Notes: generated by a model not told the origin, from the letters alone. DNA of 32,502 nucleotides from an uncultured Planctomycetales bacterium (GCA_964405005.1 CAYOMI010000002.1:1-32502), one strand, 5' to 3'. Numbered from the stretch's first letter, positions 12,001 to 32,502 are shown. Translations and numbers: made by a program.

Positions 12001-15000
12001 TTCTCTTTTACCTTTTGAAAGCTCAATTGCTCAATCCTGCCTTGGTGTATCAACTGTTTAATTTTATCCCAGGCCTCTTTGGTAGTCCTTATTATATCAG
12101 TAGATAAAGGTATTTTTCCTTCAGCAGTAATGTAAGCATTGTCGCTGGCAAAATGCAGGTGAAACTCATCAAAGCGGATGACATCCTGAGTATTTAGAAC
12201 TTCGCGGAAAGAACCACGCAGTATATTATGCAGGTGACCGAAAGAAACATCATCAATCAAAATTACGGCTTTAGGATCTTTAAACAGCGCCTCCAATAAA
12301 TTTGCTTCACCGTTTCCTATAGGGACGAGCCCTAAACCAAAAGTGTCAAAAATCTCCTTGTATTTGGCTTTGGAGACCTGTTCTCCATCCCTAACCACCA
12401 GAGTCATATTCTTTCTGAAATTAATCTTGCCTTCTTTATCTACTCCTTCTGCTCCCCATAAAGCATGTATAACCAGTTCAATCATTCCAGGAAGGGTTTT
12501 TCCTCCTCCGGAGCGTAAGAGGGGATTCTTTTCTTTAAATAAACCACAGAGCATCTGTAATCCTTCTGTAGTCTTTTCAGGTTCCTTAATTTTTCCATCT
12601 TCACCAAATCTTAATTTTGCTTCTACTGCATATGTCTTTAAGCCCACTTTGAATAAATCAAAGTAGTAGTCACCTGCATATTTCCCTTTGCCTATAATCC
12701 CCTTGGCTTCTTTTGCTAAATCCGCTCTTATCGCTTGATCGCTTCTGCCCTCAAATGAAGTTATGCTCTGATTAAATTCTCGGATGAAATTATCTAGGTT
12801 AGCATTTAAAATGCCTGATTTAGGCTTCATTGTTCCGTTGGGATTAAATTCTACATTTAGTTTGCCCTCGTTATTTATTAACCCTACTTCCTGCGCCTTC
12901 TGCAAGGTTGAAATCTGAGCAATCAATCCTTTAGCTGCCTTCTTCAAAGTTGCATCCACTAATAAATCTTCTCCTTTGACACTCTCGCCGTCTTTTGTGT
13001 TGCATATTTTCTCCAATAGTTGTTGTGCCTCGCCTATTTTGCCGTTATCAACTAATTCTCCAAATACTCTCGTTCTTAACTTATGCTGAAGTTGAAATTC
13101 TAACCCGCTATTGGGGTCATTAATTATTTTCTCTATTTCTGAACGTTTAAATTCATACCTATAGCCGCCTTTTACCTTTAGCGTAATAATTTCTTCTTCT
13201 TGGCCATTGGCTGGTGTTTCTTTAAATTGTTTTTTAAGTTTCTGAATTTCTTTCATAGAATTGGCCTTAAAGAGGGCAAATCTTGCTATGGTAGAAATCA
13301 GCACTGGATCATTAATATCCAAGGTATCTGGAATATCCTTACCTGTCTGGAGATAATAATCCCGGACCCTATCCATCTTTCTAGTTGCCTCTGCATCTGG
13401 ATTCGAGGTTTGAGTTTTAAGCCTCGCAAAATAACCCTCGACATATCCTTTATGTAATGAATCTGCTTTGCTATGGAGTTTAGCAAGTTCCTCTTGGCCT
13501 GCTCCCTCTAGATACCTTTGCCAATAATCATAGCGCGCCTGATAATAATCCTTTTCTGTTTTGCTTATAGGTTTCCCAAGTGCTTTGCTGTAATTATCTC
13601 TTCGTGTTGCAAAATCTATTACTAAACTTTCATATCTACTTCTTAATTCTCCGGTTAATTCTACCTCAATCTGGTCTCCTATATTTATTTTCCTTATTTT
13701 TCCCTGTTCGGTTTCAGCGCCAGATTTAATCTCTCTCTCACTTTCACTAACTAAATCACTACCTTCATATTGTTTATAACCGATTTTAACCTCTCTGAGT
13801 CCGCCGACACTCCTTTGCCGCTCAATTAATACCTCAGCAATCCTCTCTGCGCCCTGGCCTCTTTTTAATTCGCCAATATCTATTCTTGCGGAAAGTTTAT
13901 CCTCGCCTACCTTAAACTCTACTGTCTCGCTACCTGTCTCTGTCTCAGTAACCACCTTTAAGGATTTAGAGGTAAGTAATTTAGGGTTCCTTTCTATAAG
14001 ACCTGCGTTAAACCCTCTTAACTGAGCATACTCTTCCATTAAAGGCATCAATCTATTTGCCTTATCTCTCAATGCCTTTAACTGCTGCATTGTTTCTTGA
14101 CTGGCCCCACTATTCTCCAATGCATCTTCTGCCTGCTGGGTTGCTCTTCCTTTTCCAAACAAAAATATCTCAAGGTGTTTTTGTATTGCTTTCTGTTTTG
14201 AAGTTTGTTCTGGTAAAAGAATTTCTGCACGGCTAATGATTGCTTTCTTTGCTGCTTCTTTATCACCGCTATTAAATGCATCTCTTATACCTTTTTCTCC
14301 TCTATAAACTTTACTAATTGGCTTTTCAGAAGATCCATAAATGGTCACTTCGCCCTCAGGAGGAGCATTCTCTTCACCAGAAAGAATTATTTTTCTCTTG
14401 CTAGGGCTGGGAAATTCTCTCTCTATTTTTTCCTGAATGCCTGCTTCCTTTCTCGATATTTCCGCAATTGAACTATATTTATTAAATCTCTGGAATTCTT
14501 TTAATGTGGCGCCTCTGTTTATCTCGCCAGGGCCTTGGGGTCCGCGTCCCTCATGCACAAGAAGCAACTCAAGATGCTCAGGTAAAATATTGCCTGTCTT
14601 TATAGCCAATCTAACCCAACCTATAGCATTTTCCTCTTTAGACGAAGGAGCAACTGCTTTATAATTTGCCATCCCTTTCTCAAAGTTCTCTCTATTTGTA
14701 AAATTATTGTAGACCCTGTTAGTTAAAACATCTGTATAAAGACCAGCCCTCTTTATACTATCCAGAATCCTTGCCACGCCAGTTACATAACCGGAAATAT
14801 AAAACAGAGAATCAATTTCTGCTACGATAGAGTTTTTATTCATTATGGCAGCGAGTTTTCCCAATTTTCCTGGCGCAAGCGCGGATAGCCATTTATTTTT
14901 GGCAAACGCCCAATCCGCAGCTGATACTATTTTGGTTGCAACGCCACGTGAAGCACCCAATTTCACACTCAGACTTTGATAACCGGTCTCAGGCGCTAAC

Positions 15001-18000
15001 TCGCGGGGTGTATTCATTGCTATCCTCAGCAAAACCCCCATAAATTTGCCGTGCTTGGCAGCAGCAATATACTGCAGTGCCTGCGCCCGGTCAATAGAGA
15101 AAAGTTCGCCAGCAGTAAGAGGTCTATAATGTATCTGTCTTGTTATGGGATCTTGTTCTTCTTTGCGGAAAGGATACCATTTGTCTGCAAATTTCCAACC
15201 CCAGACCGGTTGATCCATATTAATGTAAAATACATGGTCAACAGTTTTCTCAACTGCTCCTATGGTTGTATCCCAGACCGGCTTAGCCTTATCCATAACT
15301 AGAGAAATAAATGGCCACTTTACAGTTCCTTTTAAAGGCTCGGCCACAAATTGATGCACAAGTCTCTGTTTTGGCCCTTCAGCTAACTTTACCTCTTCAT
15401 TTGCCAAAGTCCCGTAATGTTTAACATTCTTACCCACATTATTAAAGTATTTATTACCCGCCTTTGACAAGGCAAACTGCACTAACTTTGCATAAACCGC
15501 ACCTCTTATTCCGCTTACTACAATCTGTCCAGGACTGGCTTTACCGGGTATTAAACCATTACCTGAGATTAAATTACCATCTTCATAAACCAAGGGTTCT
15601 GCTCCAAAGGACCTGCCTGTTTTCTTTTCTAAGTAACCAATACCAAAATCTCTTCCTATATTTATCCCTGCGCCAGTGGCTATAACACCGACATTACGTA
15701 TTAATCCGCTGTAGTCGGAGAATTTGCCTGTAAGATTTCTATTTCCTCTTAAAAATTCGGAAAGCTTGCCAGAAGAGGCTAGAAAACGCGCGTATGCTCC
15801 CCAAGTAGCTGCCTCCATCGCTGCTTCTTTCCATTCATTAGTCTTAAAACTATCTAAATCTATTGCCAATCTTGCCGCAACAGCAGTGGCTGTCCAGGTT
15901 GCGAGAGTAAAAGTCCTCTGCGCTGCCCACGTCCATCTATTTATTATCAGCCTATCATCTACAACGCCGTAGTATGGATTAAAAGAGAAATTTAATATCT
16001 TACCGAATCTATTCTCTGTCCAGAATTTTGATTTTGCAAAATCAGTATAATTTGCTACTCCTCCGGCAAAACCAATTATTCCGCCAAAGAACGCTCCGCC
16101 TTTTGCTCCTGCCATCCAGCTTTCGCCCTTTAGACCTTGAACGATTTTAACTAAACCTCTCCCTGCCTGACCTCTAAATACATCCTTTATGCCTCCTCCT
16201 AAACTTAAAAAATCTAAACCCGTAAAACTCTGAATATTAAATTTAACTGTATCGCCAAAACTTGCATTATTTAACTCAGGGGCGTGCAACACATTATTGG
16301 TTGCCATATCCACATTACCAAAGAGAATAGCATTATTAACTATACCTTTATAAGTAGTAAATTTTATTGCCGCGGGTTTCAAGTTCGGCGCAATATTCTC
16401 TGTAGGAATAAATCTTCCATCAGCGGTTTTCTGCAGTAATCCTTTGGCTGCAGCCCTATTATTAAGGTGTATATTAAACATATGTAAACCAAAAATAGTC
16501 CCAAAGGTAATCAGTGTTTGAGGAAGATATTTCTTATTTACATCCCAACCCCAGAGCGGCTCCTGGTTCCAAATCATATTGAGAGTTTTGTTCACCAATA
16601 ATTCTCCTCCTGCAAAAGCCAATCCGGATAGAGCGGCACTTCCTTTTGTCGCAGGGCTAAGTAGCCAGTTGGCCTTTGAAGAAAGATTTAAACTGCTTCC
16701 TACTTTACGAAGAAGTAACAATTCTGCCAGTATCTCAAATGCATTACCTGTCCAGCCAGCAGCTTTCAGGTACCCTTCCCGCTGCTCTTTTGCCCAAGTA
16801 AAAGGATGCCAGTCTCCTCTCCACATATTCCATATTTCCTCACCAAGGGCCTTATTTTGCTCGTGAAAGACCTCTTTGTGTCTCCAATAAGAAGGCATAC
16901 AAGCATAAATAATAATCTTCTCTAATGCCCAGCCAGGTGATTCTACTATGCCTCTTGCTGAATTAAACGCAGTTCCTGCCAGCCTGAAAGGAAACTCTAT
17001 TTCCGCACCTGTTACCATTAGAGCCAGATTAAGATTGGGAGCGTATAAAGCTTTTTCTATAGGGACGAGTTTTCTCGTAATCCACCAAGACCTGTTGATA
17101 TAATCTTGTAAATCCTTCTGCGTTTCTCCAATCCATATGCTTGTGCTTTTGGCTATGTCATAGAGGCGTTGGTCTTTCTTATTGGAAGAATTCTTTGATT
17201 GCATAATTAAATCTGCGGCAGCTAAAACCTCCTCCAGTGAAACATTTCTCTGTTGAAGCTGTCCTCTCAAAAGCTGATTCTCGCCATGCCGAGCCTTCAT
17301 AAGATCCTCTGTTGCAAGCTCTACACATTCTCTATCAAGCTCGATTGCTTCATTAGACTCGGGTGATAGTTTATAGAACTTATCATTATCCCCGCTCTTG
17401 GAATACTTAAAAAAGACTCTGCCATCATTAGCGTAATGCACAATCTGCACAGGTTGACCTTTGTAATAATAACCTAAAACATTATTTTCATCTTCTTTTA
17501 TCTCTAGGCCTCCGGTAAAATGATTTACGCCTTTAGATAGCGGGTCAGTAGTAAAGACTTCACGGTAAGCAGCCTTCGCTGTATAACTTTTGTTAGAGAC
17601 GACTACCTGAATGCCTATTGAACCATCCGGATTCCTGCGCACATTTATCTTTGCATTAGGATTATTTTCTATTTGTCTAAGGATTCCCAAAATACTCAAC
17701 ATGCTATTGTCTCCCAGATTGCTAGCTATACTTAAATACTCTTTGGCTTTCTGGTTATCCTTTCCTAGTAGGTAAGATATGCCAAGGTTGTGATACATTG
17801 CATCTGCGCCGGGAACACTCCTATCCGTTAATCCTTCCATAAGCTGAGCTGCTTCAGTTATTCTTCCGTATTCAAGGCTGCGCTTTGCCATTTCTACTTT
17901 TTTCACATCCTTATTTTGAAAACCACAAACGATTTTTGACTTACCAGCGAGCATTTGCAACAAGTGCTCTCTAACAACTCTTCCTTCGGCATCCTTACCA

Positions 18001-21000
18001 ATAACCCAGACCTTAGAAAGATCCCAACCTGCTTCTTTATATCTCTTCTCAAGTGAAGAATCTCCACTTCCGCGTATAGCAAGTTCTATAATATCTTTTC
18101 CGTTATGCAGGGAGACATGGCCTATGGGATTATCGTCGCGCGTCATATATACAATGCTATATTTATTAGTACCGATTTTTTCCATTAATTCACAAGTAAG
18201 CAAACTAATGCCTACACAGTTGAGCCCCTTCTTACTGTCTTTATCTGGATTTATTCCTCCAATATGTAAGTTGGTATTATTATAGATTAAATCTAAAATA
18301 AATTTCTCCTTTAATTCCTGAGAAATATTCAATTTTTGCATCTGCTGACCAAAATTATCCCAGGTTAATCCGCCGGATACACCCAAACGCACAATCAAAT
18401 TTTCTATTGGTATATATTGACTCTTTGGGTCTCTCCTTTCAAATAATTGATTATACAAATCCGTCAACCATTTCTTAGAGTCGGTGGAAAGATGGCTGTA
18501 AAAACCAATATCAGCGCCAGAGAGCACTATCCCACGTTGGCCGAGGAATAAAACGTACGAACCATTTTTAAAGTAAAGTTTTTGGTCATTGGGGCTGCCG
18601 CCGACTATCTGTTCCCTGTGCTCCACCTCATTGCCATTAATTGCTACAACCTGCGCCTCACTTCTAGCCCTATGCTCAAAAGTTACAGTGGTGGTATCTT
18701 TTACATTTTGTGTATTCCCAGAGATATATTGCCTATCATAGCGGTATCCACCCCGAAGAAGTGTAATACTCGGGCTACTTTGTCCTTCCTGCCAGTTGAT
18801 TTTGTATTTGCTTGCGGATAACCAATGGCCCTCTGTTCTCTGACCACCAGCAGTAATATATTCGGGTATGATTATTTCAGTTTTTCCTTTCGCCTTGGGG
18901 GGAGAAACAGAAATTCCTTGTTCAATTTTCTTCTCCTTCTCTGAAGCATTTTTACTTAATGGAGATATATTGTAGGGTTGAAATCCTCCATTTAAAAGTA
19001 CGGCCACTAATTGTTGGTTTTTCTTTGTAGCAAATAGGGCTAAAACACCAGTTCCTTCAATTGGTTCTGCATCAGCATTAACTCCAAACAATCTAGATAT
19101 GGCTTTAGTAAGTGCAACCCCGGCGTTGGTGTTTTTCTTATCTTTATTATAATCTATTAGTGCTATATCTTGTGGCTCCAGAAGATACCCTTTACCTTTC
19201 ATATGCAGCATTGTTACTTTTTGGCCTTCTACAATCTTTTCTTCTAATTTAAACTCTGAAGGATCATAGGTATCGGTCAAATTAAACCCTCCCCAGCAGA
19301 ACCAACTTTTCCAGCCGCGTGGATTTTCTCTCAGGGTTTTTAATTTGAATCTCGCATATGGACTAAGTGTTTTTCTCGCTATAATACCATATTGTTCATC
19401 TGAAGAACGTTTTTTGCCATTTCTGTCACGCAATAAGGCAGAGTGTACATCTTTATTTGCGTCTACCCAAAATAATAACTCATCTCCTTCTCTATCATAT
19501 CCAATCCATTTCTGCCCTGGCCGAAGCTCTGACTCCTGCTTTGTCTCTTTTCCCATTACCAGATCCAGAAAACTTGACTGGTTATTGAAGGCGCCTTGGT
19601 GGAAGAAGATCTTTTGAGTGCCGTTAATGTCTAAGAGAGGGAGACCTAACTCTTTATCAATCACTGCAGGAATTTTATCGAGCCACTTTCCTTTTTCAGC
19701 ATCAAAATATTTCAACGCAGAGAATGAGCCGGGCTTATAGCGGTATTGGATAGTGCCTTTCTCATCCTTGCCTAATACCTCAAATTCATAGGAAATATTA
19801 AAAAGTTTGCCAATAATATTGCCGTCTTTATCCGTAATAAGGTGATTGACGCCCTCGGCTCTTTCACCTACTCCTTTATTATAAGGCCGCTCATTAGCAT
19901 CGAATTTTATCTCTACCGGCTTTTTATTATTCATTCCATAGGGCTTAAGATAAGTTGGGCCAGCGGTGCCCATCTGCTTGGCAATGGCAATTTCAAAATA
20001 AGGAGCCACGCTTTCTTTGGTAAAGGTTATATTACCATAATATCCGTCTAAGCCAGCGCTGGCAGAGAATGTTCCCTGGTGGGAGAAGATAGCAATCTGG
20101 TTGTCGGCAGTCAAAATCCTTTCTTTAGTGCGACGTATCTCAGAAACTCTGTCTTTAACATTAAATAATGGTTTATCATCCTTCTTATTATGCCTGTCTT
20201 CAGGGGCCTTTTTGTCTTTGGGTGTATCATAATCTAGCGTGCGCTTGGCAAATAAATCTATGCGCGCCGTGCCAAAATCCAAACCTACATATTTTCCGTC
20301 ATCACTTACCAAACCACGAATATGCTTTTCTATTCTTCCATTCTCCCTTCCATTATCAAAACCTTCGGCAGAGACTGAGTCTTTCTTATATTTATATTCT
20401 ACGCCGCTCTCTTTGTTGTAACCCGTAATCTCACGAACAAAGGAGACACCAGATAATTTGGCTGCCATCTCCTGGATTTCCGTGCCTTTTCTGTTCTGTT
20501 TATTTATAGGTTTAATGCGGCCATCCTCTCTTACTCCCGGATAATTCACCAGCATATTCACCGCCTCAAACTGCTCGCCTGCGCCCAGGGTAAAGAGCTG
20601 CTCGTGGCTGTTAAATTCTAATACCCTTGCTTTTTCTCCTTTTTTATGCTCTTCTCCGTAAGGTAATACATAAACCCTGCCTTCGCCTATTCTATTTCCT
20701 GTTTCATCTACGATATTCTGTAAACCCAAGGCGATTCTTTCAAAAGAGGTAATTTCTTTACCATTTTCCATTAAGGCCGCATTTGCATAATAGCCATCTA
20801 AAGTTGCTTGGGTAGAGAAGGTTCCCTGATGAGAGAAAATACCCCTTTGATTATCACCAGTAAGAGTATTGCCGCTTACGCCTATATTAATTTTATGACT
20901 TATTGTCTGGTCTGCTCTGGCTGGTTTGTCGGTCTTACTGGGCTCATAACCCAAGCCTGACAATTCCTTCTTTAGTGTGTTTATTTGTTGTTCAATTACT

Positions 21001-24000
21001 TGGCGATTTTGCTTCTTATCTAACTTTTCTAATTTCTTATTCAATTGGTCTATTTGAAAATTTATTTCACCAATTTTATTTTGCCGCTCAACCTCTTTTT
21101 CCTCAATATCAGAGAGATGTTTGCCTAATAAAGCAAAACGGCCATTGCCAAAGCCTAAGATGGGCGCACCTTCTTTTGTAAAGGAGGCGGGTTTTTCTAT
21201 TTTTACTTTAGGGCCTACGCCATCGTCAAAACTATCTGCAGTAAGAAAATCATACGTATAATCAATGCGACCTGTCTGTGCGTTATAACCCTTAATTCTG
21301 CGTATAAAGGAGGCATCCTCTAATTTTCCCAAGCCGCTTCTATTGGTAGTATCACGCTCACCTTTTTTATCTACTTGCACATAGTCCGTAAGTAGATTAA
21401 TTTTATTAAACTGTTCTCCTACGCCCTCAGTAATAACAAAACCGCGCGAATCAAATTCTATTTTATTAATCTTACCGGGAAGCAAAGATATAAGATTGTA
21501 CTCTTCAATTTCGCCTTTTCTCCTTGTTTGGATACCTACTGGAATATTAGTAACTTCTGTGCCTGCGGTATTATTCAGGAAAACATCCTCAAAATTTCCC
21601 GAAAGACTGACATAGGGAGAAGTTAAATTATTCAGGATGAAATCTACTTTTTGTTGATTTACCAAATGCCTGCCGCTTTCTTCTTCTACTCTAAGATTCT
21701 CTTCAAAGACTGGGCCGTGGTGTCTCTGGTAAGGTGGTGGAGAAGTATTGTTTTGGTTAAAGATCTCTTCGGCTGTAGGAATTTTTTGGTCAATAAGCTG
21801 TTTAAAAATTAAAGGATGTTCTTGATTTATCTGAATTATAGGCTTGCCATTTTCAAGGCGGCCTGTTATAGCCAGGTCTTTTATATCTTTTCCCACTAGC
21901 ACCTTGGCATTTTTTGCTGCAAAACTTAAAAACCCTGTTCCATTCGCCCAGAAATCCACGCCTTCTAAAAGCATTTTATCTGGGCTAATTGCAATCTCTC
22001 CGACCTTCTCTCCCTTCTTATTCACTACTGGAGCCTTTATCGTTCCCTTCTCATCCTTAATAAAATAAGAGCCTAAAGCCGTCCCATCCACCCAGCCGGA
22101 TTTAGCATTAGTTCCTGCCACAATACCTTTATCGCCAAAGGTAAAGGTTCCTACGCTACTTAGAGCCGGATTATCAACCCTGCCCCACTTATAATCCTTC
22201 GCCGGATTATTAGAGTCATTCGCTGCCGCAGCAATAATATAACCTCCTGTGCGCTCATGCTTATCATTCACAAAAGCATGCGTGGCCCACTCTGTCATCG
22301 CCCCTTCTGCTCTATAACTTGTGTCCTTATCAAATAAAAGCCGGTTATTTACGCCTACGCTTACCCAATTATTTTTAATTTCAGTCTCCAAGGCTGCCAC
22401 TGGTTTTAAACTGCCATCAGCTGAGCGGATTTCGTAGAGGCCTTTATTAACCAATTCACGAATAAAGAAATCTGGTTGACGGTTGGAATCAGCGTTTATT
22501 GTGGTAGGACCTGTCTCTGCGGGATTCTGCACACCCGCATTATTATTCCCATTTCCCATCTCAATCTTGGGAATAAGCTGGGTTAAATAATAATCTTTGA
22601 CTTGCCAAATCTTTCCATCCTTGTATCTTATATCAAGGTGTTCATTTATGGGTATAGCTTTTAGTTCTTTGCCTGTCTTTTGCTGGTAATAACCCCTGAC
22701 CTCTGCAGAGCCATCTCTCAAAGAATTATTATAATTACTATCTTCTTTCCACCCGCCTGTGGGTGTATAGTTAGCGCGCCAGATATCCTGCCCGGATTTT
22801 GCGCTATAAAGATACGCCAGATTAGCCACATCATTACTCACAGTCCTTAGCCACTCGGGTTTACCCCATTGCATATCGCCTTGGCTGGTGACACTGTATC
22901 GAAGCGCATTATTTTCAGATAATCCAGGAGTAACGGTAATTTCTTTAGTTTGAATATTGCGCAGAACATTGGTAGCGTCTTCAAAGCCCATTTGAACCTG
23001 GCCAGTCGGCACCTGCCAGTTACCCCAAATAGCGGGTGTATAATCCAGGCCTCTTTCTCCTGCACCTAAATAGAATTTTGCTTTGCTATCTTTCTTAATT
23101 CCTTGAATTAAAAGGGTATCCCTATTGGGATTTGTCAACTTACCCGAACCTCCTGCGCCGATTTTTTCTACTAACTGCCGGGTGTAAGCGCTATTATCAC
23201 TTCCTGCACCCATTCCAGTAGGTATATTTACGTGGCTGGGCATCTGAAAATCACCTTGGTTCTCAATTGCTAAAAGCCGACCCTTATTATCCCCAATCAG
23301 TGCTGTAATATCAGCAGTGCGACGGTTAGTATAATCTGAACCCATCCAGGATTCTGTGCTTCCATACAAACGAACCTTCGAATCTTGTCCTGTCTTTATA
23401 TTAACCGCCTTTTCTAGGCTATCCACACTCCCATCTACAAACCAACCCTGTTTAAGGGGCATTCTTGCTAATGCTTTTCCCTGATTAAGAGTTCCATAAA
23501 ATACACGGTCCACACCTTGACCGGTAATATTAACACGCGCGGTTTCACCATTGTCATAGGTGAATGATAGAGCATAAGAACGCTCTGGCCCCAATTGCGG
23601 GCCCACGCCCACAATTACGGGTTTATTTGCTGAGGAATCGGGATTAATGAAGAATATATCTTGGCCTTGACCAGCCGCAAATTTAATTTTATCCCCCACT
23701 CCTGGAGTAACGCCCATATTGGTAAACCTGATAGTACTGTTTGGCTGCGGAGTCAGGGTATAAATACTTTGCGACCACTGCGTAGCAGTTACATTCATTG
23801 ACTCATTATATTTGGAAGGAAGCAAATTTCCTGCGGGGTTAGAATATGCCTCAGGAACTACTGGGTTGCCAATCGCCCTGCCATAAGGCTGCATATCCCA
23901 GACTAGAGGGGTGGAAATGCGGGCATTATAGGAGAGGTCATTAAAATATTTCCCTACCCAGACCGCCATCTCTCCGCTTACCGGGCCGCTATAAGAAAGA

Positions 24001-25415: not shown

Positions 25416-25452
25416 TTTATAAACTATTTCTTAAACTCTTTAATAACCTTCT

Positions 25453-25508
25453 AAAACAAAAACCGGATTGTCAAATACTAACTTTTGCGTCGGTATTCGG
25501 CAACCCGG
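25453..25508 (-). terminator. Intrinsic-terminator (attenuator) hairpin plus U-tract in the giant-gene leader; overlaps the 3' part of the riboswitch aptamer
   Basis: In the RNA, CCGGGUUGCCGAAUAC pairs with GUAUUUGACAAUCCGG over 16 positions (1 C-A mismatch, 2 G-U) with a 14-nt loop, followed by UUUUUGUUUU (plus 25453..25462). The ATG lies about 37 nt downstream. Confidence 0.7.
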
Positions 25509-25587
25509 CTATCCTGTTACAATAAATTTTATTAGGACCCGCGGCTTTGCGCCCCCATCTCACAATGGGTTTGCCCTTTTCGCTACC
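25492..25587 (-). promoter_or_regulatory. c-di-GMP-I (GEMM-I) riboswitch aptamer, copy A (giant-gene leader)
   Basis: RNA: GGUAGCGAAAAGGGCAAACCCAUUGUGAGAUGGGGGCGCAAAGCCGCGGGUCCUAAUAAAAUUUAUUGUAACAGGAUAGCCGGGUUGCCGAAUACC. It contains the GEMM-I blocks AGGGCAAACC, a GNRA-capped hairpin (CCCAUU-GUGA-GAUGGG), GGCGCAAAGCC, a second hairpin with a CCUAA receptor-like element, and AGCCGGGUUGCCGA. GGUA...UACC can close P1. Confidence 0.8.
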
Positions 25588-25605
25588 TTCCTAATTTGCA
25601 GTAAA

Positions 25606-25634
25606 AATATAACATTAAAATACTCTTTTGTCAA
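25606..25634 (-). promoter_or_regulatory. Sigma70-like promoter of the giant gene with an extended -10
   Basis: Minus strand reads TTGACA (25634..25629), a 17-nt spacer ending in TGT, then TATATT (25611..25606). The predicted TSS near 25599 sits just upstream of the aptamer. Confidence 0.65.
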
Positions 25635-25774
25635 GGAGAATTTTCCTTTAAATTGGTAACGCTTTCTTTATTTTAATTCTTTTGATTTTCTTCTTATTTT
25701 ATTAATTATAAAGGAGTTTTAGGCCAGATAAACGCCTGATTTTTCTTAAATTTAGGGTTAATTTCGGCTTATCT

Positions 25775-25840
25775 AAACAAAAAGAAGGGGTCTAATGCGC
25801 ACTCCTAGAATATACCACGGGATTTGTCTTGACCCCTTCT
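25775..25840 (-). terminator. Possible terminator of the 2,089-aa gene: 10-bp GC-rich stem, unusually long loop, U-tract
   Basis: AGAAGGGGUC (plus 25831..25840) pairs with GACCCCUUCU (plus 25783..25792) across a 38-nt loop, followed by UUUUGUUU. It lies about 130 nt after the stop codon. Confidence 0.4.
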
Positions 25841-25890
25841 ACCTGATTTTCTTTTCTTTAACTACCCAAACTGTCAAAATCAATCTAAAA

Positions 25891-25962
25891 TTCAGATTGG
25901 ACATTTTTCAAGTCAATTTACTTATTTCTCTCAAAAGAGCATATTTCAGACTGGACATTTTT
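25891..25962. repeat. 18-nt direct repeat x2 in the 3' region of the 2,089-aa gene
   Basis: ttcagattggacattttt (25891..25908) and ttcagactggacattttt (25945..25962) are 17/18 identical and 54 nt apart start to start. The first copy also forms part of the small inverted repeat caatct-N7-agattg (25881..25899). Confidence 0.8.
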
Positions 25963-25971
25963 ATATATAAA

Positions 25972-28900
25972 TTAATTTAACATCTTAAAGGACTCTTCCA
26001 TAATTTTATCGCGTTTCCCCTCTATTTCCTCTGCCGGAATACCGGTAGAATCTGAACCAAATCCTGGCTTTAAATCTTTCACCTCAGCAGGCAAAAGTCC
26101 CTCAAACCCACTCGGCTCAGACAACTGCTTGGTGCGCACATACACTGCCTGAAGCTCATTATCTCTGGGGTCTATCACAAAATTTAGACCATTGCTGGAG
26201 AACTGTTCTGAATTATCTAAGGCCTTAATTAAAGAAAAGTTGGTAACTTCTGTTTTTTTGGTGTAATCAATTGCGTAATTAATGAGATTTTTGTCATAAA
26301 TATAAAATTGGGAACGTTCTATGCGCGGCTCTCTTTGCAGATTATTATTGAGAGCATAACCCATCTCCATTGACCAGGCAGGCAAGGGAAGCAAATTCAG
26401 ACCTTCTTGGGTGGGTAATAGCCGGTAATTGTAAACACGCAACAGTTCTACCTGTGATAAATCCCGATTCATCTGCTCGGCAACTTCCTGAGCCTTTTCG
26501 ACTAAAACATCCCTCTGCGGCATTAAGTCAAAGATATCAGAAATAGGAATAGGCAGGCGGTTGCCTTCCATTTCTTTAAATTTAGCAAATTTCTCTAATT
26601 TCTCCTCAGGAGTAGCCCTATTAAATGTTTCTTTTTTCTCCTCAGGAGTAGCCCCATTAAATGTTTCCTTAAATCTTTCTACATATCCGTTAACATTAGG
26701 ATTTGTGTAAACCAGATGCACTACTGGTTCTAAAAGACCTGTAGAGGCGCTTTCCTCTGGGCTTAAAGAGAAGTTGTTCTGCCCTAGGCATCTATTTTCT
26801 AATACTTTATTAAATAAATCTGCAATAAGCGCGTTTTTGCTGTCATACCATTTTCCAAATAAATTTTCTTCCTTCCCGGAATCTAATGTGTATTTATTCT
26901 CGAGAGGAATACCAAACTCAAGAGGAATACCAAAATTCTTTGTATCTAAGAATTGCTCCTTTAGCAAACTTGAATCTAATACCTCATAATTAAAACCACC
27001 TCCTGTAGAATCCAAAGATGATTGGAGTTTTTCGAGGTCTTTATAATTTTTATAATCCTTTTGCAGGAATTCGATATATTCTTTAATCTCTGCTTCGCTA
27101 ATAAACTTCTTAAACTTCTCAGGTAAAGTGAATTCTGTATTATTTCTAACTGCCTCTCGCACAAGAGATTTCAATTCACGCACTACAGCTGAAGATAACT
27201 TCCCCGCATCAATATTATAGTATCTTTCTGATATAAGATATGATCCAGAATTTATATCCGCATAAATCCAGCGCGCAGCCGGACCTGTATAAGGGCTGGC
27301 ATACTTACCTGTGTCATAAATATTAAGGTCATAAGTAATATTGGGGCCGAAACTAATTGGGGCCGGAGTTTTAATTTCTTGAGTTTTGGGAGGAGTAATA
27401 ATTTCTTTTGGCACCTTGATAGTTTCTTGTACTGCTTTCTCATATTCTTCTTTGTTATAAATTGTAAACTTAACATAACGATCCGCTTCTCTCTCTTTAT
27501 GTGTAGTGTAGGTTCCATCGGGATGGAATTTCGGAACTGTAGCCTGAGATTTACCCAGACTTTTTGTTTTAATCCGATCTCCTGGCACGCCCATTTCTGC
27601 CAAAACATCTTTAATCGCATCAGCGCGCCTCTGTCCTAATTCGAGATTATATTTTTCGCTGCCCCAAACATCACAAGCGCCCACCACTTCAAGTTCCTTA
27701 TCAGGATTTTGTTCTAAATATTCTTTGATTGGTTCAAGCTCTTTTTCAAGTTTAGTGTGGGCATCCTTACGCACAACAGATTTATTAAAATCAAAATAGG
27801 AATCTACGAGTAGTTTATCCTCTTTAACTGCGGGTATGTTATATTCTCTAATTCCTTCTTCAAAGACGGTTTCTTTTCTTTCTGGTTCAATTATTTTTGT
27901 TTCGGATTTCATTGGCCACTGCCGCGGCATAGTTATCTCGCTATAGTCTCTGGTAACACTAAGAATCGGACCAAAAGAACCGTAGTAATAATTTGTGGAT
28001 TTATCCAGTTTAACTGTACCCCAGTCTCCGGCTGTCCCTTCAGGTCCAGGATAATACTCTTTCCCAAAATACTCTGTCTTTATTCTCCTTCCTGAATCAT
28101 CCACTTCTGTGCGGCTTAATAAACCATAATCTAGGTGATAAAAAATAACCGGTAGTTGAGCAACAAATGTTTTTAATTTCTCAAGCTCCTCTGGTCCCTC
28201 TTCGGGAAGCCAGGAAACTAATTTTGCTAACTTTAACCTTTCTTCGCCGCCTTCTTTAAATGCCTCAGCGCGCAACTTATACACATTTGCGTGAGTAGAA
28301 ATACTAAGCAGATTTTTCATTGTATTTTTAAAATCTTTCTCATCTAACTCATTTAATTGTCCTTCGGTTCTAACAATAAAATCAACCAGTTGCTGGGAAT
28401 TCCAGTTAGCATTCAGATCTCTGAGAGTCTTGATTGTCTCTTTAAAAGCCGCAACTTCTACATACAAACAGACTGTATTAATTTCTTCTTCCGTTAGTTG
28501 TCTCTTGTCTAATTCAGGAATGAGTTTCTCCACAAGGTCTTTCTGGATCTTGCTCAAATCAGCACTGTGTTTTAAGTTATTTAAGATATCTAATAAATTC
28601 TTCTTATTTTCTAATACTTCCTTCTTACTTTTCACAATTCGTTCAACTTCTTCATCTGTAAAGCTGTCTCGGGCAATTAAAAATACTGGCTTAGCCGGGT
28701 CATAAGGTCTGTCTGCTTTTGCAAGACGAAAGTTCCCATACACTTCAATATCCTGGGGTATCCCTGCTATACTGGGATAATAAGTGCCTTCTATACCTGC
28801 AACATTTTTCTTTAATGCCGCCAAACGTTTTTGTTTAGTTACCTCATCTACGTCTTTTTGTACAGTGATAAAGGCCTCCAATCTCTTTATTGTATCCCCA

Positions 28901-31900
28901 TCTAATTTTTTCAATCTACCTGTTAATTGCCTGTCTACACGGTAATCTACAATCCCGCCAATTATAATATCATTTAACTGGATACTGCCTTTTTCTAAAT
29001 AAGCCCGGCTCCCTAAAGATATAGTTGAGGTGAACGCCCCCACTATAGGAATAATGGAAAATAACCTCTGTAGCGGAGAATTTATTAAAGCCTGTAAATT
29101 GGGCATTTCTATTTTTTCTAGCCGGTCTTCTTTTTTAGATAAAGACTCTTTTATCGTGGGAATAGTGTGTAATAACTCTTTGATCTCTTCCAGGTCGCTT
29201 ATCGTCCCTTTACCGCTTGCTCTGGCAAGAAAATCCAATGCCTCGCCATGCTCTTCTGCCAATTCTTTATACCCCTCAAGAGTAGCATATTTCCCATCCT
29301 TAATCGCTTCTTCTAAGGCGCGTAACTTTTTCAGTTTATTAGCTAAATCCTCAGCCTCTGCCTTCTTAATTTTCAGTTCACGTGCTAATTGTTCTCCTTG
29401 CAGGATAAAGGCAGCATAGGAGCGATATTCTAAAGGTAGATAAGGATTCATAATTGCATAACTGAGGGAATTGGCAAAATCCCGGTTAGCCACCTCAGCC
29501 ATCCGACCCGCTACAATATTACCCAATGCCTGTATGGGGTTGCTTCCCCGCATCATACTATCTATGTAAGAAATGAAGAAGTCATAATAATCCCAGGGCT
29601 TTCTGATAAATGAATCTGCTCCTGAGGATAAATCTTCACCAAAAGGATAGGTGTTGGTAGCCGCGGCAATCAAATTATTATTGAAATTTTGCAAAACACC
29701 CCTGATAAAACGGCCAGCGTCTGAAATTCCCTTTAATCTGGCAGCCAAGTAAGGGTCTTCTGACTTAAGCTGAAGATAGGCAATATGTACCGGTGAATCA
29801 GCAGGAAGAATTAATTTATATATTTCTTTTTTGCTCAACTGCTCTTTTCTACTAAGCGGTTCACCCAAAGTTATTTTCTGTCCCTGAGAATCAGTTAAAA
29901 TAATTTTCCCTGGTTCGCCTTGCACAGGTATGCCGGCTATAGAAACTATACCTCCTTCTTCTTTCTCCAACAATATGTAGGTTTTGCCATCTTTTGTAAA
30001 CAACGCTGTCTTCCCATCATTTGTTTCTCCTTTTTCATAATCTAAAGCCAGGGTGACTGAGTCAATGAGAATAACATTATCTTTTCTTGCCTCTACCTTT
30101 CCCTCTTTTACCTCTACCTCGTTTAACTTTACAAATGTTACTTTTATGGCGCCAGGGTCTTTTCTAAAGAATGTATCTATTAATCCTGAAACCACACTGC
30201 TGGCAAGTAAATGCCCAAATTCAGAAACCACATCCTGCGAGATATCATTCTTTTTGCAGTAATAGCCCCAGAGTACCCTAAATACTGCTATGCCTACCTC
30301 TTCCAATGCCTTTTTAGCCATATATTGGCCTAAGGATAAGCCCTGTTTGTTCTCCCAGGGATTGCGTGGCTGGAAGTTACCCTTCTCGTCTTTTAGCCCT
30401 ACTCTGCCTGCATAGTAGCTATTTAAAGTAGTTAAGTTCATCACAAACCCCGCAGCTATGCCTGAGACCATATCTGCAATCGCCATCTTCCATAAACTCT
30501 CAAAAACTGGCTCAGATTCGCCGCTATGGTCGGTTTTATGACCCAGGGCTTTTAAAATGAGAATTTTAGTGAGGCTATAGACAATCGGGCCTAAGCCTAA
30601 GTGCCGCATTGCCTCCAGTCCTACTGCAAAGGCCGAACGATTGGCAGTCATCAGGTTCCCGTGGAAATCATACCATAAACCACCGCCAGTCAGGCTTATT
30701 AAATCCTGAAGCGCGTCTGCTTTTGCGGTGTAATTTAGTATCTTTTCTTTTACTGTGTTGAAAATTTCTTGCGTAAGAACAAACTTGCCCTTTCCTCCTA
30801 CTTCTACGATGTTAATATCCTGGGCTCTTTTGCCTAACTTTAAGGCTACTTCAAAGCTTACTCTTACTACCTGTTCTTTACCTTCCTCTCCCGTAACTTT
30901 AATTTCTACCTCAGCATTGCTAAGATCCGTTGCCGTGTAGGATTTACCATTTACATTAATAATTTCCTCTTTTCCTAATGAATCCAACTTTTGAATTGCC
31001 TTGCCGTCTTGCTTACGCGCAAAACCGCCTCCTTTAGTCAAATAAAGACCAAATGCCTTTGCTACAGTCGCGCGCAGCAGACCAGAAAAGAAAGCATTAG
31101 TAAAAGTCCCTGCCAGGCTTCCTGCTACTGCGGCTATTGCCTCATCCCAGCCGGCATCTTCTAATTTTTGCTTTACATACTCAGAGATAATGAGTTTAAA
31201 TGTGCCGCTGATTAAATCCGTGACTAACTGTAATGTTGCCAGACCGTATGATCCCTTCATTCCATAATAAATATAAGGGTTGAAACCTCCCTCTTTAGTA
31301 ATAAGGGCTTTAAAAGCCTGGCGCCAGGATGTGGTCTTTGGCAAATCTCCTTTTAGTCTTCCCACATTAAAGAAATTCTTAATTTTAGCGAGCAGTGATG
31401 TTGTCTGTTTTGCTGCCTGCTGGGGAACTTGCTTTACAGTCTCTTTGGCGCCTACCTTGGCAACTTCTTTTATACTCTCTTTAGGCAACTCTTTAGCTAC
31501 TCCGGCTTTGCCGCCTTTGAATAAATTCAGGATACTGCGCCAGATAGTTTTTATCCCAGTCTTAATCGTCTCAAATATTTTGAATATTCCTTTGACAATC
31601 CATTTTAGCGCATCAACAATGGCTTTGACAATTGACTGGATTACAGAGGTGGCTGCTGCTGAGGTTGTTGAAGCTACCACTGTTCCTGTTGTTGCACCAA
31701 CTGTTGCTCCTGTTGCGCCTGTTGTTGCGCCACCAGTTGTTGCGCCTGCTGTCCCTGCTGTTGCGCCACCTGCAGTTGATCCACCAGTTGTTGCGCCTGC
31801 TTCTGTGCCTCCTGCAGCTGCTCCTCCTGAAGTCCCTCCAGCGCCTCCGCCTGCAAATGCTCCGGCAGCAAAACCCGCAATTGCGCCTGCAACCACTCCG

Positions 31901-32241
31901 GCAACCATAGAATACATTGCACCTTTGGTAATGGTAACACCACCAATTTTAAATAGCGGCTCGCCATAGTCGCTGTAGTGGTTATAATACATATAAAGGC
32001 CCATAAGGTTAGCGGCAATTGTAGAGGCAAAGGTAGCGACAGGCCATATAAACATACATAAATCAGTTATTCCTCCCACAATAAAGCCCATTGTCCACAT
32101 TTCCATTGGGCTTTTGTCACCCGGATTACCTTCACGGGCCCAGGCAGGTGTGCAGACATTAAGGAAGAAAATAATTGCCAGAATTGCGCTAATCCATTTC
32201 TTCACTTTTTCCCGATTTTGAGTTTGATTTTTCATAAACAT
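25972..32241 (-). CDS. 2,089-aa envelope protein with signal-like N-terminus, hydrophobic helices, G/A/T low-complexity tract and OmpA-like domain
   Basis: Complete ORF in the supplied track. Domain evidence is given in the sub-features. It has its own promoter, riboswitch-like leader and attenuator immediately upstream. Confidence 0.9.
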   Translation of the reverse strand: MFMKNQTQNREKVKKWISAILAIIFFLNVCTPAWAREGNPGDKSPMEMWTMGFIVGGITDLCMFIWPVATFASTIAANLMGLYMYYNHYSDYGEPLFKIGGVTITKGAMYSMVAGVVAGAIAGFAAGAFAGGGAGGTSGGAAAGGTEAGATTGGSTAGGATAGTAGATTGGATTGATGATVGATTGTVVASTTSAAATSVIQSIVKAIVDALKWIVKGIFKIFETIKTGIKTIWRSILNLFKGGKAGVAKELPKESIKEVAKVGAKETVKQVPQQAAKQTTSLLAKIKNFFNVGRLKGDLPKTTSWRQAFKALITKEGGFNPYIYYGMKGSYGLATLQLVTDLISGTFKLIISEYVKQKLEDAGWDEAIAAVAGSLAGTFTNAFFSGLLRATVAKAFGLYLTKGGGFARKQDGKAIQKLDSLGKEEIINVNGKSYTATDLSNAEVEIKVTGEEGKEQVVRVSFEVALKLGKRAQDINIVEVGGKGKFVLTQEIFNTVKEKILNYTAKADALQDLISLTGGGLWYDFHGNLMTANRSAFAVGLEAMRHLGLGPIVYSLTKILILKALGHKTDHSGESEPVFESLWKMAIADMVSGIAAGFVMNLTTLNSYYAGRVGLKDEKGNFQPRNPWENKQGLSLGQYMAKKALEEVGIAVFRVLWGYYCKKNDISQDVVSEFGHLLASSVVSGLIDTFFRKDPGAIKVTFVKLNEVEVKEGKVEARKDNVILIDSVTLALDYEKGETNDGKTALFTKDGKTYILLEKEEGGIVSIAGIPVQGEPGKIILTDSQGQKITLGEPLSRKEQLSKKEIYKLILPADSPVHIAYLQLKSEDPYLAARLKGISDAGRFIRGVLQNFNNNLIAAATNTYPFGEDLSSGADSFIRKPWDYYDFFISYIDSMMRGSNPIQALGNIVAGRMAEVANRDFANSLSYAIMNPYLPLEYRSYAAFILQGEQLARELKIKKAEAEDLANKLKKLRALEEAIKDGKYATLEGYKELAEEHGEALDFLARASGKGTISDLEEIKELLHTIPTIKESLSKKEDRLEKIEMPNLQALINSPLQRLFSIIPIVGAFTSTISLGSRAYLEKGSIQLNDIIIGGIVDYRVDRQLTGRLKKLDGDTIKRLEAFITVQKDVDEVTKQKRLAALKKNVAGIEGTYYPSIAGIPQDIEVYGNFRLAKADRPYDPAKPVFLIARDSFTDEEVERIVKSKKEVLENKKNLLDILNNLKHSADLSKIQKDLVEKLIPELDKRQLTEEEINTVCLYVEVAAFKETIKTLRDLNANWNSQQLVDFIVRTEGQLNELDEKDFKNTMKNLLSISTHANVYKLRAEAFKEGGEERLKLAKLVSWLPEEGPEELEKLKTFVAQLPVIFYHLDYGLLSRTEVDDSGRRIKTEYFGKEYYPGPEGTAGDWGTVKLDKSTNYYYGSFGPILSVTRDYSEITMPRQWPMKSETKIIEPERKETVFEEGIREYNIPAVKEDKLLVDSYFDFNKSVVRKDAHTKLEKELEPIKEYLEQNPDKELEVVGACDVWGSEKYNLELGQRRADAIKDVLAEMGVPGDRIKTKSLGKSQATVPKFHPDGTYTTHKEREADRYVKFTIYNKEEYEKAVQETIKVPKEIITPPKTQEIKTPAPISFGPNITYDLNIYDTGKYASPYTGPAARWIYADINSGSYLISERYYNIDAGKLSSAVVRELKSLVREAVRNNTEFTLPEKFKKFISEAEIKEYIEFLQKDYKNYKDLEKLQSSLDSTGGGFNYEVLDSSLLKEQFLDTKNFGIPLEFGIPLENKYTLDSGKEENLFGKWYDSKNALIADLFNKVLENRCLGQNNFSLSPEESASTGLLEPVVHLVYTNPNVNGYVERFKETFNGATPEEKKETFNRATPEEKLEKFAKFKEMEGNRLPIPISDIFDLMPQRDVLVEKAQEVAEQMNRDLSQVELLRVYNYRLLPTQEGLNLLPLPAWSMEMGYALNNNLQREPRIERSQFYIYDKNLINYAIDYTKKTEVTNFSLIKALDNSEQFSSNGLNFVIDPRDNELQAVYVRTKQLSEPSGFEGLLPAEVKDLKPGFGSDSTGIPAEEIEGKRDKIMEESFKMLN
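26601..26672 (-). repeat. In-frame 36-nt tandem duplication (12 aa)
   Basis: tctcctcaggagtagccctattaaatgtttcttttt (26601..26636) versus tctcctcaggagtagccccattaaatgtttccttaa (26637..26672). The protein is KETFNGATPEEK followed by KETFNRATPEEK. Confidence 0.9.
26903..26938 (-). repeat. In-frame 18-nt tandem duplication (FGIPLE x2)
   Basis: agaggaataccaaactca (26903..26920) versus agaggaataccaaaattc (26921..26938). The protein reads NFGIPLEFGIPLEN. Confidence 0.85.
27455..27810 (-). other. OmpA-like (OmpA_C / MotB-type) peptidoglycan-binding domain
   Basis: VDSYFDFNKSVVRKDAHTKLEKELEPIKEYLEQNPDKELEVVGACDVWGSEKYNLELGQRRADAIKDVLAEMGVPGDRIKTKSLGKS...ADRYVKFTIY. It fits F-x-F-x-x-S...L...I...G-x-x-D-x-x-G-S-x-x-Y-N-x-x-L-x-x-x-R-A-x-x-V...G-V...I...G...N/D-R-[RY]-V. 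The frame was verified at 27781..27822. Confidence 0.75.
31645..31870 (-). repeat. G/A/T-rich low-complexity tract forming a local GC-rich island
   Basis: The protein is GFAAGAFAGGGAGGTSGGAAAGGTEAGATTGGSTAGGATAGTAGATTGGATTGATGATVGATTGTVVASTTSAAATS. The DNA reiterates gttgcgcc / tgttgc units. The composition opens spurious ORFs in three other frames. Confidence 0.85.
32137..32241 (-). other. Signal-peptide-like N-terminus (possible cleavage after AWA)
   Basis: MFMKNQTQNREKVKKWISAILAIIFFLNVCTPAWA followed by REG: a basic n-region, a hydrophobic core and an A-x-A site. It might instead act as an uncleaved anchor. Confidence 0.55.
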
Positions 32242-32277
32242 TTGAAAACTCTTTATTAAACTTTTAATTAACTCTTT

Positions 32278-32318
32278 AAAACAAAAGCCGGATTGCTTTT
32301 TGCTTCGGCAACCCGGCT
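32278..32318 (-). terminator. Intrinsic-terminator (attenuator) hairpin plus U-tract in the leader of the 2,089-aa gene; overlaps the aptamer 3' block
   Basis: In the RNA, AGCCGGGUUGC pairs with GCAAUCCGGCU (11 bp including one G-U) around the loop CGAAGCAAAAA, followed by UUUUGUUUU (plus 32278..32286). The ATG lies about 36 nt downstream. Confidence 0.7.
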
Positions 32319-32426
32319 ATCTTTTTAAACGCCGTCGAGAAAATAAATAAAAACCGAATTTTTCTGCGTCTACAAGACCCGTGGCTTTGCGCCCCTACCT
32401 CGCGGTAGGTTTACCTTTTCGTGCGC
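32302..32426 (-). promoter_or_regulatory. c-di-GMP-I (GEMM-I) riboswitch aptamer, copy B, with an enlarged second hairpin
   Basis: RNA: GCGCACGAAAAGGUAAACCUACCGCGAGGUAGGGGCGCAAAGCCACGGGUCUUGUAGACGCAGAAAAAUUCGGUUUUUAUUUAUUUUCUCGACGGCGUUUAAAAAGAUAGCCGGGUUGCCGAAGC. It has the same block order as copy A, with a GNRA (GCGA) loop on a fully compensated stem (CCUACC/GGUAGG versus CCCAUU/GAUGGG). The base of the second hairpin also covaries (GUCUU/AAGAU versus GUCCU/AGGAU). Confidence 0.7.
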
Positions 32427-32446
32427 TTTTATCTTGTAACACTCAA

Positions 32447-32474
32447 ATTATAGCATATATCTTGCCTCTATCAA
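32447..32474 (-). promoter_or_regulatory. Sigma70-like promoter of the 2,089-aa gene with an extended -10
   Basis: Minus strand reads TTGATA (32474..32469), a 16-nt spacer ending in TGC, then TATAAT (32452..32447). The predicted TSS is near 32440. Confidence 0.6.
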
Positions 32475-32502
32475 GTATTTTTTTATATAATTAAGATAGC
32501 GC

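Follow-up and report, generated by a model that had tools for sequence, protein, structure and literature searches.

The DNA analysed here is a stretch of 32,502 nucleotides (nt) recorded as coming from an uncultured Planctomycetales bacterium (GCA_964405005.1 CAYOMI010000002.1:1-32502), which we call the window, and our subject is the 5' leader at its 3' end, on the minus strand, in front of a gene for a protein of 2,089 amino acids (aa). This leader (leader B) carries a sigma-70-like promoter, an aptamer (copy B) and an intrinsic terminator, and is followed by the ATG at 32241. We consider it likely, with a probability of roughly 85%, that copy B is a canonical class I riboswitch for the second messenger cyclic di-guanosine monophosphate (c-di-GMP), placed before a gene for a 2,089-aa envelope protein and acting as a transcriptional ON switch. 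A second aptamer of the same kind (copy A) stands in the leader of a giant open reading frame (ORF) elsewhere on the same strand (leader A). The parts of leader B, together with the gene behind it, are as follows.

32447..32474, minus strand: sigma-70-like promoter, TTGATA, 16 nt, TG-n-TATAAT (TGcTATAAT), matching at 11 of 12 positions, with the TG of an extended -10
32303..32423, minus strand: c-di-GMP-I (GEMM-I) aptamer, copy B, 61.6 bits with Rfam RF03167 and 88.3 bits with our own covariance model R1
32421..32408, minus strand: block CGAAAAGGUAAACC of copy B
C32421/G32420 with G32306/C32307, minus strand: helix P1 of copy B
32414-32389 and 32413-32390, minus strand: the G21-C46 and U22-G45 pairs of copy B
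32409..32394, minus strand: first hairpin, CCUACC-GCGA-GGUAGG, with its GCGA loop at 32403..32400
32393..32383, minus strand: block GGCGCAAAGCC of copy B
32386..32310, minus strand: second hairpin of copy B
32323..32374, minus strand: distal extension of the second hairpin (52 nt), an irregular helix as predicted by constrained folding
32318..32303, minus strand: block AGCCGGGUUGCCGAAG of copy B
32278..32318, minus strand: intrinsic terminator, with arms AGCCGGGUUGC (32318..32308) and GCAAUCCGGCU (32296..32286)
32307..32297, minus strand: terminator loop, 11 nt
32285..32278, minus strand: terminator U-run UUUGUUUU, the last U of the arm being counted once
32242..32277, minus strand: A/U-rich stretch from terminator to ATG, about three 12-nt UUAAAGAGUU-like repeats (Tandem Repeats Finder period 12, 2.9 copies)
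25972..32241, minus strand: the 2,089-aa gene, an ORF with an OmpA/Pal-like peptidoglycan-binding domain at aa 1482-1567

An Rfam cmscan of the whole window gave exactly two matches, copies A and B, both within the c-di-GMP-I clan (CL00126). Copy B (32423..32303) was matched by RF03167 with an E-value of 2.1e-12, and copy A (25584..25495) by the same model with 71.4 bits and an E-value of 3.2e-15, both reaching the gathering score of 59, while R1 gave 81 bits for copy A; the Rfam match of copy B is far above chance. The scan reports the clan member with the best E-value and suppressed two further matches of the same clan, and the RF01051 score of copy B is hidden behind this filter. An earlier note on this DNA had claimed a second GEMM-I copy before the 2,089-aa gene and had named the scoring of copy B by a covariance model as a test of the claim. 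The clan match bears it out, and the sequence blocks, the two hairpins and the 11-base-pair (bp) terminator with its U-run that the note had quoted are all present on the minus strand. The first hairpin of copy B is capped by a GNRA-type GCGA loop, where copy A has GUGA. GEMM-I aptamers of type 1 combine a GAAA loop with an 11-nt receptor (CCUAAG/UAUGG) in the second hairpin; with its GCGA loop and no receptor motif, copy B belongs to the receptor-less (type 2) group with a GYRA tetraloop, the two terms being used as they follow from the Rfam consensus and from PMC11218506.

The nucleotides that hold the ligand are also in place. In the Vc2 aptamer the contacts are G20, A47 and C92, to which a universally conserved interhelical C-G pair is added (PMC4744006), and our numbering was checked against the contact list of PDB 3IRW (G14...G19, G21, C46-G50; PMC7288161) as well as against PMC4744006. 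The equivalents in copy B are G32415, A32388 and C32308, all of them canonical, and the interhelical C44-G83 pair is C32391/G32317, in columns where all 124 relatives have C and 123 of the 124 have G, respectively. Copy A is canonical at the same three contacts and at the same pair.

The relatives come from a wide sample, gathered by a pattern scan with one genome per species, which yielded 120 loci from many phyla; our model finds 124 aptamers in 100 sources. R1 was built from six leaders that agree in register and in junction length, on a structure written by hand, because MAFFT placed the junction indel at the 5' end and left P1 out of register. Across the 124 relatives 96.4% of the pair cells are standard and 16 of the 21 modelled pairs show two-sided changes, in alignments that were fitted to the model and are hence biased toward it; none of 500 shuffles reached the observed values, and slid controls gave 24-46% pairing. 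Among nine close homologous leaders 96.8% of the cells pair, and seven pairs change on both sides. A protein scan of metagenome contigs (first 700 aa) found a sole ortholog of the 2,089-aa gene, here L122, with 35-44% aa identity. Its leader holds an aptamer that scores 49.9 bits with RF01051 (gathering score 35) and a promoter, TTGATA...TGGTATAAT, in the same place as in leader B. The first hairpin of L122 has a GCAA cap and a different stem sequence, and in the second hairpin one U-A pair is flipped to A-U and another U-A is replaced by G-C. Its terminator, AGCCGGGUUAC/GUAACCCGGCU, likewise carries arm changes that are compensatory relative to copy B. The proposed pairings, whose upkeep in homologous leaders was the other test that the earlier note had named, are kept in the 124 relatives, in the nine close leaders and in L122.

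The case for a switch lies in the way the terminator is built. The second hairpin lends its 3' strand, together with G91/C92, to the 5' arm (32318..32308), so that 11 nt are common to both folds; as the aptamer thereby supplies one arm of the terminator, only one of the two can form at a time. The terminator stem has 11 pairs, one of them G-U; the hairpin alone folds at -17.8 kcal/mol and is followed by UUUGUUUU, about 36 nt before the ATG. In RNAfold the minimum free energy (MFE) structure of leader B includes the terminator stem (-51.8 kcal/mol, z -3.3), compared with -39.2 kcal/mol when the aptamer is enforced, a difference of 12.6 kcal/mol in favour of the terminator as calculated for RNA with neither ligand nor tertiary contacts; in leader A and in L122 the terminator state leads by 17 kcal/mol each. 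The expression platform of the terminator type that had been proposed is supported, with an 11-bp stem and a U-tract between aptamer and start codon. The overlap of the terminator with the 3' strand of the second hairpin is found in all Omnitrophota-type leaders checked, in L122 and in L038, whereas across the whole set of relatives it occurs in 16 of 123; in L122 and the Omnitrophota leaders the overlap goes together with compensatory changes in the arms.

Since the default fold is termination, ligand binding should give read-through, and an ON switch is predicted. Transcription would start near 32440 from the sigma-70-like promoter, which is the top-scoring promoter-like site in the 7 kb scanned (25300..32502). 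As long as no ligand is present, AGCCGGGUUGC would pair with GCAAUCCGGCU, forming the intrinsic terminator with its U-tract, and transcription would stop ahead of the ATG. Binding of c-di-GMP at G20, A47 and C92 would lock P1 and the second hairpin and sequester the 5' arm of the terminator; with the terminator blocked, RNA polymerase would read into the 2,089-aa gene. Many c-di-GMP-I riboswitches are OFF switches, and the direction given here for leader B is read from folding only; even so, we regard an OFF switch, or an action on translation, as quite improbable. The two folds are mutually exclusive through the shared strand, no alternative anti-terminator was found, and the region of the start codon (32242..32277) lies outside both folds.

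A side observation concerns the balance of the two folds in other leaders. In three Omnitrophota aptamers (L015, L017 and L027) the second hairpin contains a C-A mismatch (CCGAG, on its 3' strand), yet in the terminator the mismatched A finds a U as its partner; this combination of a perfect terminator with a weakened aptamer helix may tune the switch.

The comparison of the two copies within the window supports the reading of copy B as an intact riboswitch and modifies the history that had been suggested for it. With both copies aligned to R1, 21 of 21 modelled pairs form in each. Five pairs differ between them and all five still pair, so that the compensatory differences from copy A described earlier are real. 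Going from A to B, three pairs changed on both sides (pair 3 of the first hairpin from C-G to U-A, pair 5 from U-A to C-G, and the second-hairpin pair beside GGGUC from C-G to U-A) and two on one side (U-G to C-G in the first hairpin, and C22-G45 to U22-G45). Several details of the earlier note have to be corrected. The first stem, which it called completely different though still pairing under a GNRA loop, does pair and does carry GCGA where copy A has GUGA, but only three of its six pairs differ, with the remaining three unchanged. In the second hairpin there is indeed a swap from C-G to U-A (U32375-A32322), but it sits at the distal end of the conserved part and not at the base. The single-stranded blocks, said to be identical, are not fully so: the junction reads AAAAG in copy B and AAAAGG in copy A, 1 nt shorter in B, and the bulge is A, not G.

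The note had taken the kept pairing as the mark of a structured RNA under selection rather than of a recent DNA duplication. The first half of this agrees with our alignments, but the second does not, as the two leaders can be aligned over their full length, starting at the promoter and ending at the ATG, with 28 of 36 bases identical in the non-aptamer stretch after the terminator. Because the alignable part reaches from promoter to ATG and includes these non-aptamer bases, leaders A and B are paralogous cassettes whose later divergence was constrained by structure; in their case duplication does not rule out selection, nor selection duplication. The A/U-rich stretch before the start codon (25416..25451 in leader A), made up of 12-nt UUAAAGAGUU-like repeats, is also conserved in four further Omnitrophota leaders (L015, L027, L066 and L115), and the motif TAAAGAGTTT occurs twice in the window, once in each leader, with 0.27 occurrences expected. 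We considered this motif as a Shine-Dalgarno site and ruled it out, its distance to most start codons being too great.

Such a close relationship between the leaders could also mean that the giant-gene leader was copied as a cassette to a place before a lineage-specific gene and that this duplicate, copy B, is decaying or without function, leaving a constitutive terminator or nothing at all. The alignment from promoter to ATG, with 28 of 36 bases shared beyond the terminator and the TAAAGAGTTT motif in both leaders, would fit this, as would the fact that the 2,089-aa gene is missing beside the giant genes in the related loci fetched. Decay is nevertheless very unlikely in our view, given that all 21 modelled pairs are intact in copy B, that the five pairs differing from copy A all pair, three of them after changes on both sides, and that the conserved single-stranded positions and the terminator are all intact; in addition, the distant ortholog L122 has a riboswitch of like design.

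The sequence next to the ligand-contacting purine had been taken to mean that the two copies might differ in specificity. The difference itself was correctly described: copy B reads AAGGU where copy A and Vc2 read AGGGC, at Vc2 positions 18-22, the changes being G19A and C22U. The difference in specificity is not supported, as the contacts are canonical in both copies, A19 is common (position 19 is A in 59 and G in 56 of the 124 relatives) and U22 is still paired, with G45. Because four related Omnitrophota leaders have U-A at this pair, the U22-G45 pair of copy B looks like an intermediate of C-G to U-A covariation. We predict c-di-GMP to be the ligand of both copies, because the A20 signature for cyclic GMP-AMP (cGAMP) is missing from copy B and the contacts are canonical; the affinities of copies A and B may differ.

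A change from G to A at position 20 enables a c-di-GMP-I aptamer to bind cGAMP (PMC7288161), and it could be argued that copy B senses 3'3'-cGAMP, as riboswitches of the GEMM-Ib type do, or is promiscuous, in which case copies A and B would read different signals. Copy B does depart from copy A right beside the contact purine (G19A, C22U and the junction shorter by 1 nt), and two related Omnitrophota aptamers have A20. We see little chance that this applies to copy B, which retains G20 (32415) and C92 and lacks the A20 of GEMM-Ib, whose A19 is shared with 59 of 124 relatives, and whose U22 retains its pair. The two Omnitrophota aptamers deserve mention in their own right: at L124:2337-2542 and L128:2673-2759 the position equivalent to G20 is occupied by A, as is characteristic of GEMM-Ib aptamers selective for 3'3'-cGAMP. 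In the L124 aptamer the second hairpin is further enlarged by an insertion of 139 nt, and the L128 aptamer is a weak match (22 bits) on a low-coverage contig.

The last alternative follows from the family label, RF03167 being the family that cmscan names for both copies, and their 61.6 and 71.4 bits lying above its gathering score of 59: copy B could be a true member of the 'c-di-GMP-I-GGC' variant, with an altered pocket and possibly a ligand other than c-di-GMP. The name 'GGC' would refer to positions 20/47/92. This is the least likely of the readings that we weighed, as the RF03167 consensus has a conserved G at model position 37 (Vc2 position 47, 'GCGAAgCc'), a column in which copies A and B show A instead ('GCAAAGCC') and leave the match line blank. 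Many canonical A47 aptamers without a tetraloop receptor likewise receive the RF03167 label, whereas those bearing the receptor go to RF01051. Furthermore, RF03167 needs about 12 fewer bits for an equal E-value, as in L007 (87.6 bits) and L020 (75.1 bits), both with an E-value of 1.2e-15, and in E-value mode L122 is shown as RF03167 with 43.1 bits despite its 49.9 bits with RF01051. Since A47 is present and the clan filter ranks by E-value, the RF03167 label of the window copies is an outcome of competition between models. More generally, c-di-GMP-I aptamers with A47 and no receptor are routinely labelled 'c-di-GMP-I-GGC', the RF03167 gathering score of 59 does not exclude them, and automatic RF03167 annotations are likely over-called.

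Set against the reading of copy B as a canonical c-di-GMP ON switch are several points that have to be weighed together. The best Rfam model for copy B is the 'GGC' variant, whose gathering score is exceeded by only 2.6 bits. Just one orthologous leader of the 2,089-aa gene, that of L122, was found; homology searches with the entire protein and with aa 201-900 gave no match, probably because their filter of 8,000 candidates was swamped. Conserved contact nucleotides do not guarantee tight binding, as seen in Vc1 (PMC4744006), and affinity or folding kinetics could also be affected by the 1 nt missing from the junction, the wobble at U22-G45 and the length of the distal helix.

The long distal segment of the second hairpin was another feature stressed in the earlier note, which had described an insertion of about 55 nt in copy B. 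The segment is indeed long, with 54 nt in copy B (52 beyond the last modelled pair), but copy A has 22 (20), so that the net gain is 32 nt and not 55. As a distinguishing feature the expanded hairpin does not stand up: distal length ranges from 3 to 87 nt among the 124 relatives (median 16.5 nt), copy B being the third longest, and from 15 to 139 nt in Omnitrophota giant-gene leaders, the longest being that of an Omnitrophota relative. With the core enforced, the extension folds into a 7-bp helix (UAGACGC/GCGUUUA) and a 6-bp helix (AGAAAA/UUUUCU) closed by a 16-nt loop, and so prolongs the second hairpin. L122 has an extension of 46 nt which folding also predicts to be a long irregular helix and which has no sequence similarity to that of copy B. 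We take the distal extension to be a tolerated variable region, as these comparisons suggest. A role of the insertion as a sequestor in the ligand-free state, in which UUUAUUUUCUCG would pair with CGAAAAGGUAAA (11 of 12 positions in the full-length MFE fold), was rejected: the sequences are A/U-rich, the pairing is not present in L122, and the aptamer alone folds natively. Elsewhere in the wide sample, three loci from Anaerolineae/Chloroflexota (L026, L107 and L118) have the distal loop of the second hairpin filled by tandem 7-nt repeats (CAGTAAT-like or GGCGGAT-like), with distal segments of up to 87 nt among the aligned aptamers; in L118 the run of repeats enters a stretch of N.

Turning to the genes, the 2,089-aa protein has a Pfam OmpA match (E 5e-14), its PDB and NCBIfam matches are to Pal/OmpA only, and no other domain was detected. 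As judged by eye from the sequence, it has an N-terminal signal peptide and hydrophobic segments. An exhaustive HMMER search (1.84 billion) gave a family of 36 representatives of 1,066-3,801 aa, and Pfam on four of these 36 returned nothing useful. The remaining features of the window that concern us lie downstream of this gene.

25775..25840, minus strand: terminator-like hairpin after the 2,089-aa gene, AGAAGGGGUC...GACCCCUUCU then UUUUGUUU, -22.7 kcal/mol, z -2.2
25606..25634, minus strand: promoter-like site of leader A, TTGACA, 17 nt, TATATT, with TG, 11 of 12 matches
25495..25584, minus strand: c-di-GMP-I aptamer, copy A (RF03167), upstream of the giant gene
25453..25510, minus strand: terminator of leader A, overlapping the 3' strand of the second hairpin of copy A; the segment alone folds at -24.5 kcal/mol
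3..25415, minus strand: giant ORF of more than 8,471 aa, an open frame that runs off the window, with an N-terminal Pfam Peptidase_C39-like domain

Because a hairpin follows the 2,089-aa gene and copy A has a promoter of its own, the 2,089-aa and giant genes would be separate transcription units, and we propose that both of these very large genes are switched on by one second messenger, each through its own promoter, aptamer and terminator. The N-terminus of the giant ORF is 56-66% identical to genes from metagenome-assembled genomes of Candidatus Omnitrophota, an identity that places the window in Omnitrophota and makes the ORF one of the 'giant genes' of this phylum (bioRxiv 10.1101/2023.11.21.568195). 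No GGDEF domain was detected in the part of the giant protein that the window covers (8,471 aa). The start of the giant ORF shows a further peculiarity. Past the terminator but ahead of the ATG of the giant gene, three related loci (L015, L027 and L066) carry a short ORF, 29-34 aa long, which encodes the motif GVRGKLxF and includes the conserved nucleotide motif UGGGGUAAGGGG. The window (25323..25415, minus strand) has this peptide as well (MMKEFIEKIIRILGERGKLFLPLFHIGKNNN), but joined to the giant ORF in one reading frame, and the usual UAGGUAAAnnAUG start reads UAGGUAAAAAUAAUAAUA, with no AUG. Within this fused region, at 25351..25369 on the minus strand, lies a second terminator-like hairpin, GGGGGAAACUAUUUCUUCC then CCUUUUUCAU, which is not clearly conserved as a hairpin in orthologs.

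The leader of the giant gene is not peculiar to the window. We assembled a sample of eight contigs (L123-L130) picked solely by identity to N-terminal homologs of the giant protein, and in eight of eight an aptamer match lies 165-270 nt upstream of the giant gene, seven at the Rfam gathering score and L128 weak, with an overlapping terminator in all eight. The pattern scan adds four Omnitrophota loci with a like arrangement (L015, L027, L066 and L115), in one of which, L115, a 393-aa gene stands between the aptamer and the giant-gene homolog. The window and these 12 related loci define a leader of sigma-70-like promoter, c-di-GMP aptamer and terminator directly before the giant gene, or in L115 before the 393-aa gene. 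The 2,089-aa gene was not found beside the giant gene in any related Omnitrophota locus fetched, and would be a lineage-specific neighbour that carries the same leader cassette. A further Omnitrophota c-di-GMP-I leader was seen at L017:1-6500 (minus strand) before a run-off ORF of more than 2,166 aa, whose N-terminal membrane segment (KLWFKVVAFTMIGVFL) resembles that of the giant protein of the window (KIWIRIVAFIVVCVFL).

Omnitrophota giant genes are among the longest bacterial genes known. A broader proposal, to which we give about even odds, is that c-di-GMP-I ON riboswitches serve as conserved gatekeepers of these genes (C39-domain, 'Archaeovorin'-type, tens of thousands of residues), and that in the lineage of the window the cassette was also recruited to the 2,089-aa gene. 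The word 'riboswitch' does not occur in the searchable main papers on Omnitrophota giant genes (preprints and the Nature Microbiology survey), and a full-text search for Omnitrophota together with riboswitch returned only an unrelated ComFB paper; on the basis of sequence analysis of the 12 related loci and the window, the tight link between c-di-GMP-I ON riboswitch and giant gene appears to be unreported. A 2026 preprint describes one giant gene as having no recognisable promoter or ribosome-binding site before it (10.64898/2026.06.04.730025), and West-Roberts et al. report that giant genes contain GGDEF domains and are followed by PilZ genes, which fits a c-di-GMP circuit at these loci. The riboswitch itself adds nothing new to RNA biology, being a canonical aptamer that Rfam detects; its value is in the context. 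If the proposal is true, a single second messenger would turn on a whole cell-surface or predation apparatus, and GGDEF domains in the giant proteins together with downstream PilZ proteins would close a c-di-GMP feedback circuit. Copies A and B, with their different hairpin extensions and terminator strengths, may then have different thresholds. Copy B, with the same cassette, is predicted to control the neighbouring large envelope-protein gene, and the testable hypothesis is that high c-di-GMP licenses transcription of both the giant and the 2,089-aa gene.

Compared with known systems, copy B resembles the Vibrio cholerae aptamers Vc2 and Vc1 (RF01051) in its three-helix junction, its GNRA-capped first hairpin, G20/A47/C92 and the interhelical C-G pair, and Vc1, as an ON regulator of the adhesin gene gbpA (PMC4744006), is also like the switch predicted here. 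It is unlike them in its GCGA (GYRA) loop without the 11-nt receptor, its junction of 5 instead of 6 nt, its A19 and U22-G45 wobble, the 52-nt distal extension of the second hairpin and the simple intrinsic terminator that makes up its expression platform. A parallel in function is Bc2 of Bacillus thuringiensis, a class I transcriptional ON switch before the collagen adhesion protein gene cap, and thus before a gene for a large cell-surface protein (PMC11218506), although Bc2 belongs to another phylum and the target of copy B is a 2,089-aa protein with an OmpA domain, that of copy A a gene exceeding 8,471 aa. As ON-type c-di-GMP-I riboswitches before genes for surface proteins are established in Bc2 and Vc1, the ON reading for copy B gains support. 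The RF03167 GGC variant shares with copy B the receptor-less second hairpin and the CGAAAA.../...UGCCGAAG ends, and is its best-scoring model, but the G47 that defines the variant is A in both window copies. The 3'3'-cGAMP riboswitches of Geobacter (GEMM-Ib) have the fold of copy B, but A20 where copy B has G. These Geobacter elements are terminator-based ON switches before genes for extracellular functions. Also close are the Omnitrophota giant-gene leaders (copy A, L015, L027, L066 and L123-L130), which have the same cassette of promoter, aptamer, overlapping terminator and A/U-rich stretch and with which leader B aligns over its full length; leader B differs from them in the gene that it precedes, in having no small 'GVRGKL' ORF, and in a terminator that is shorter and a second hairpin that is longer than in most of them.

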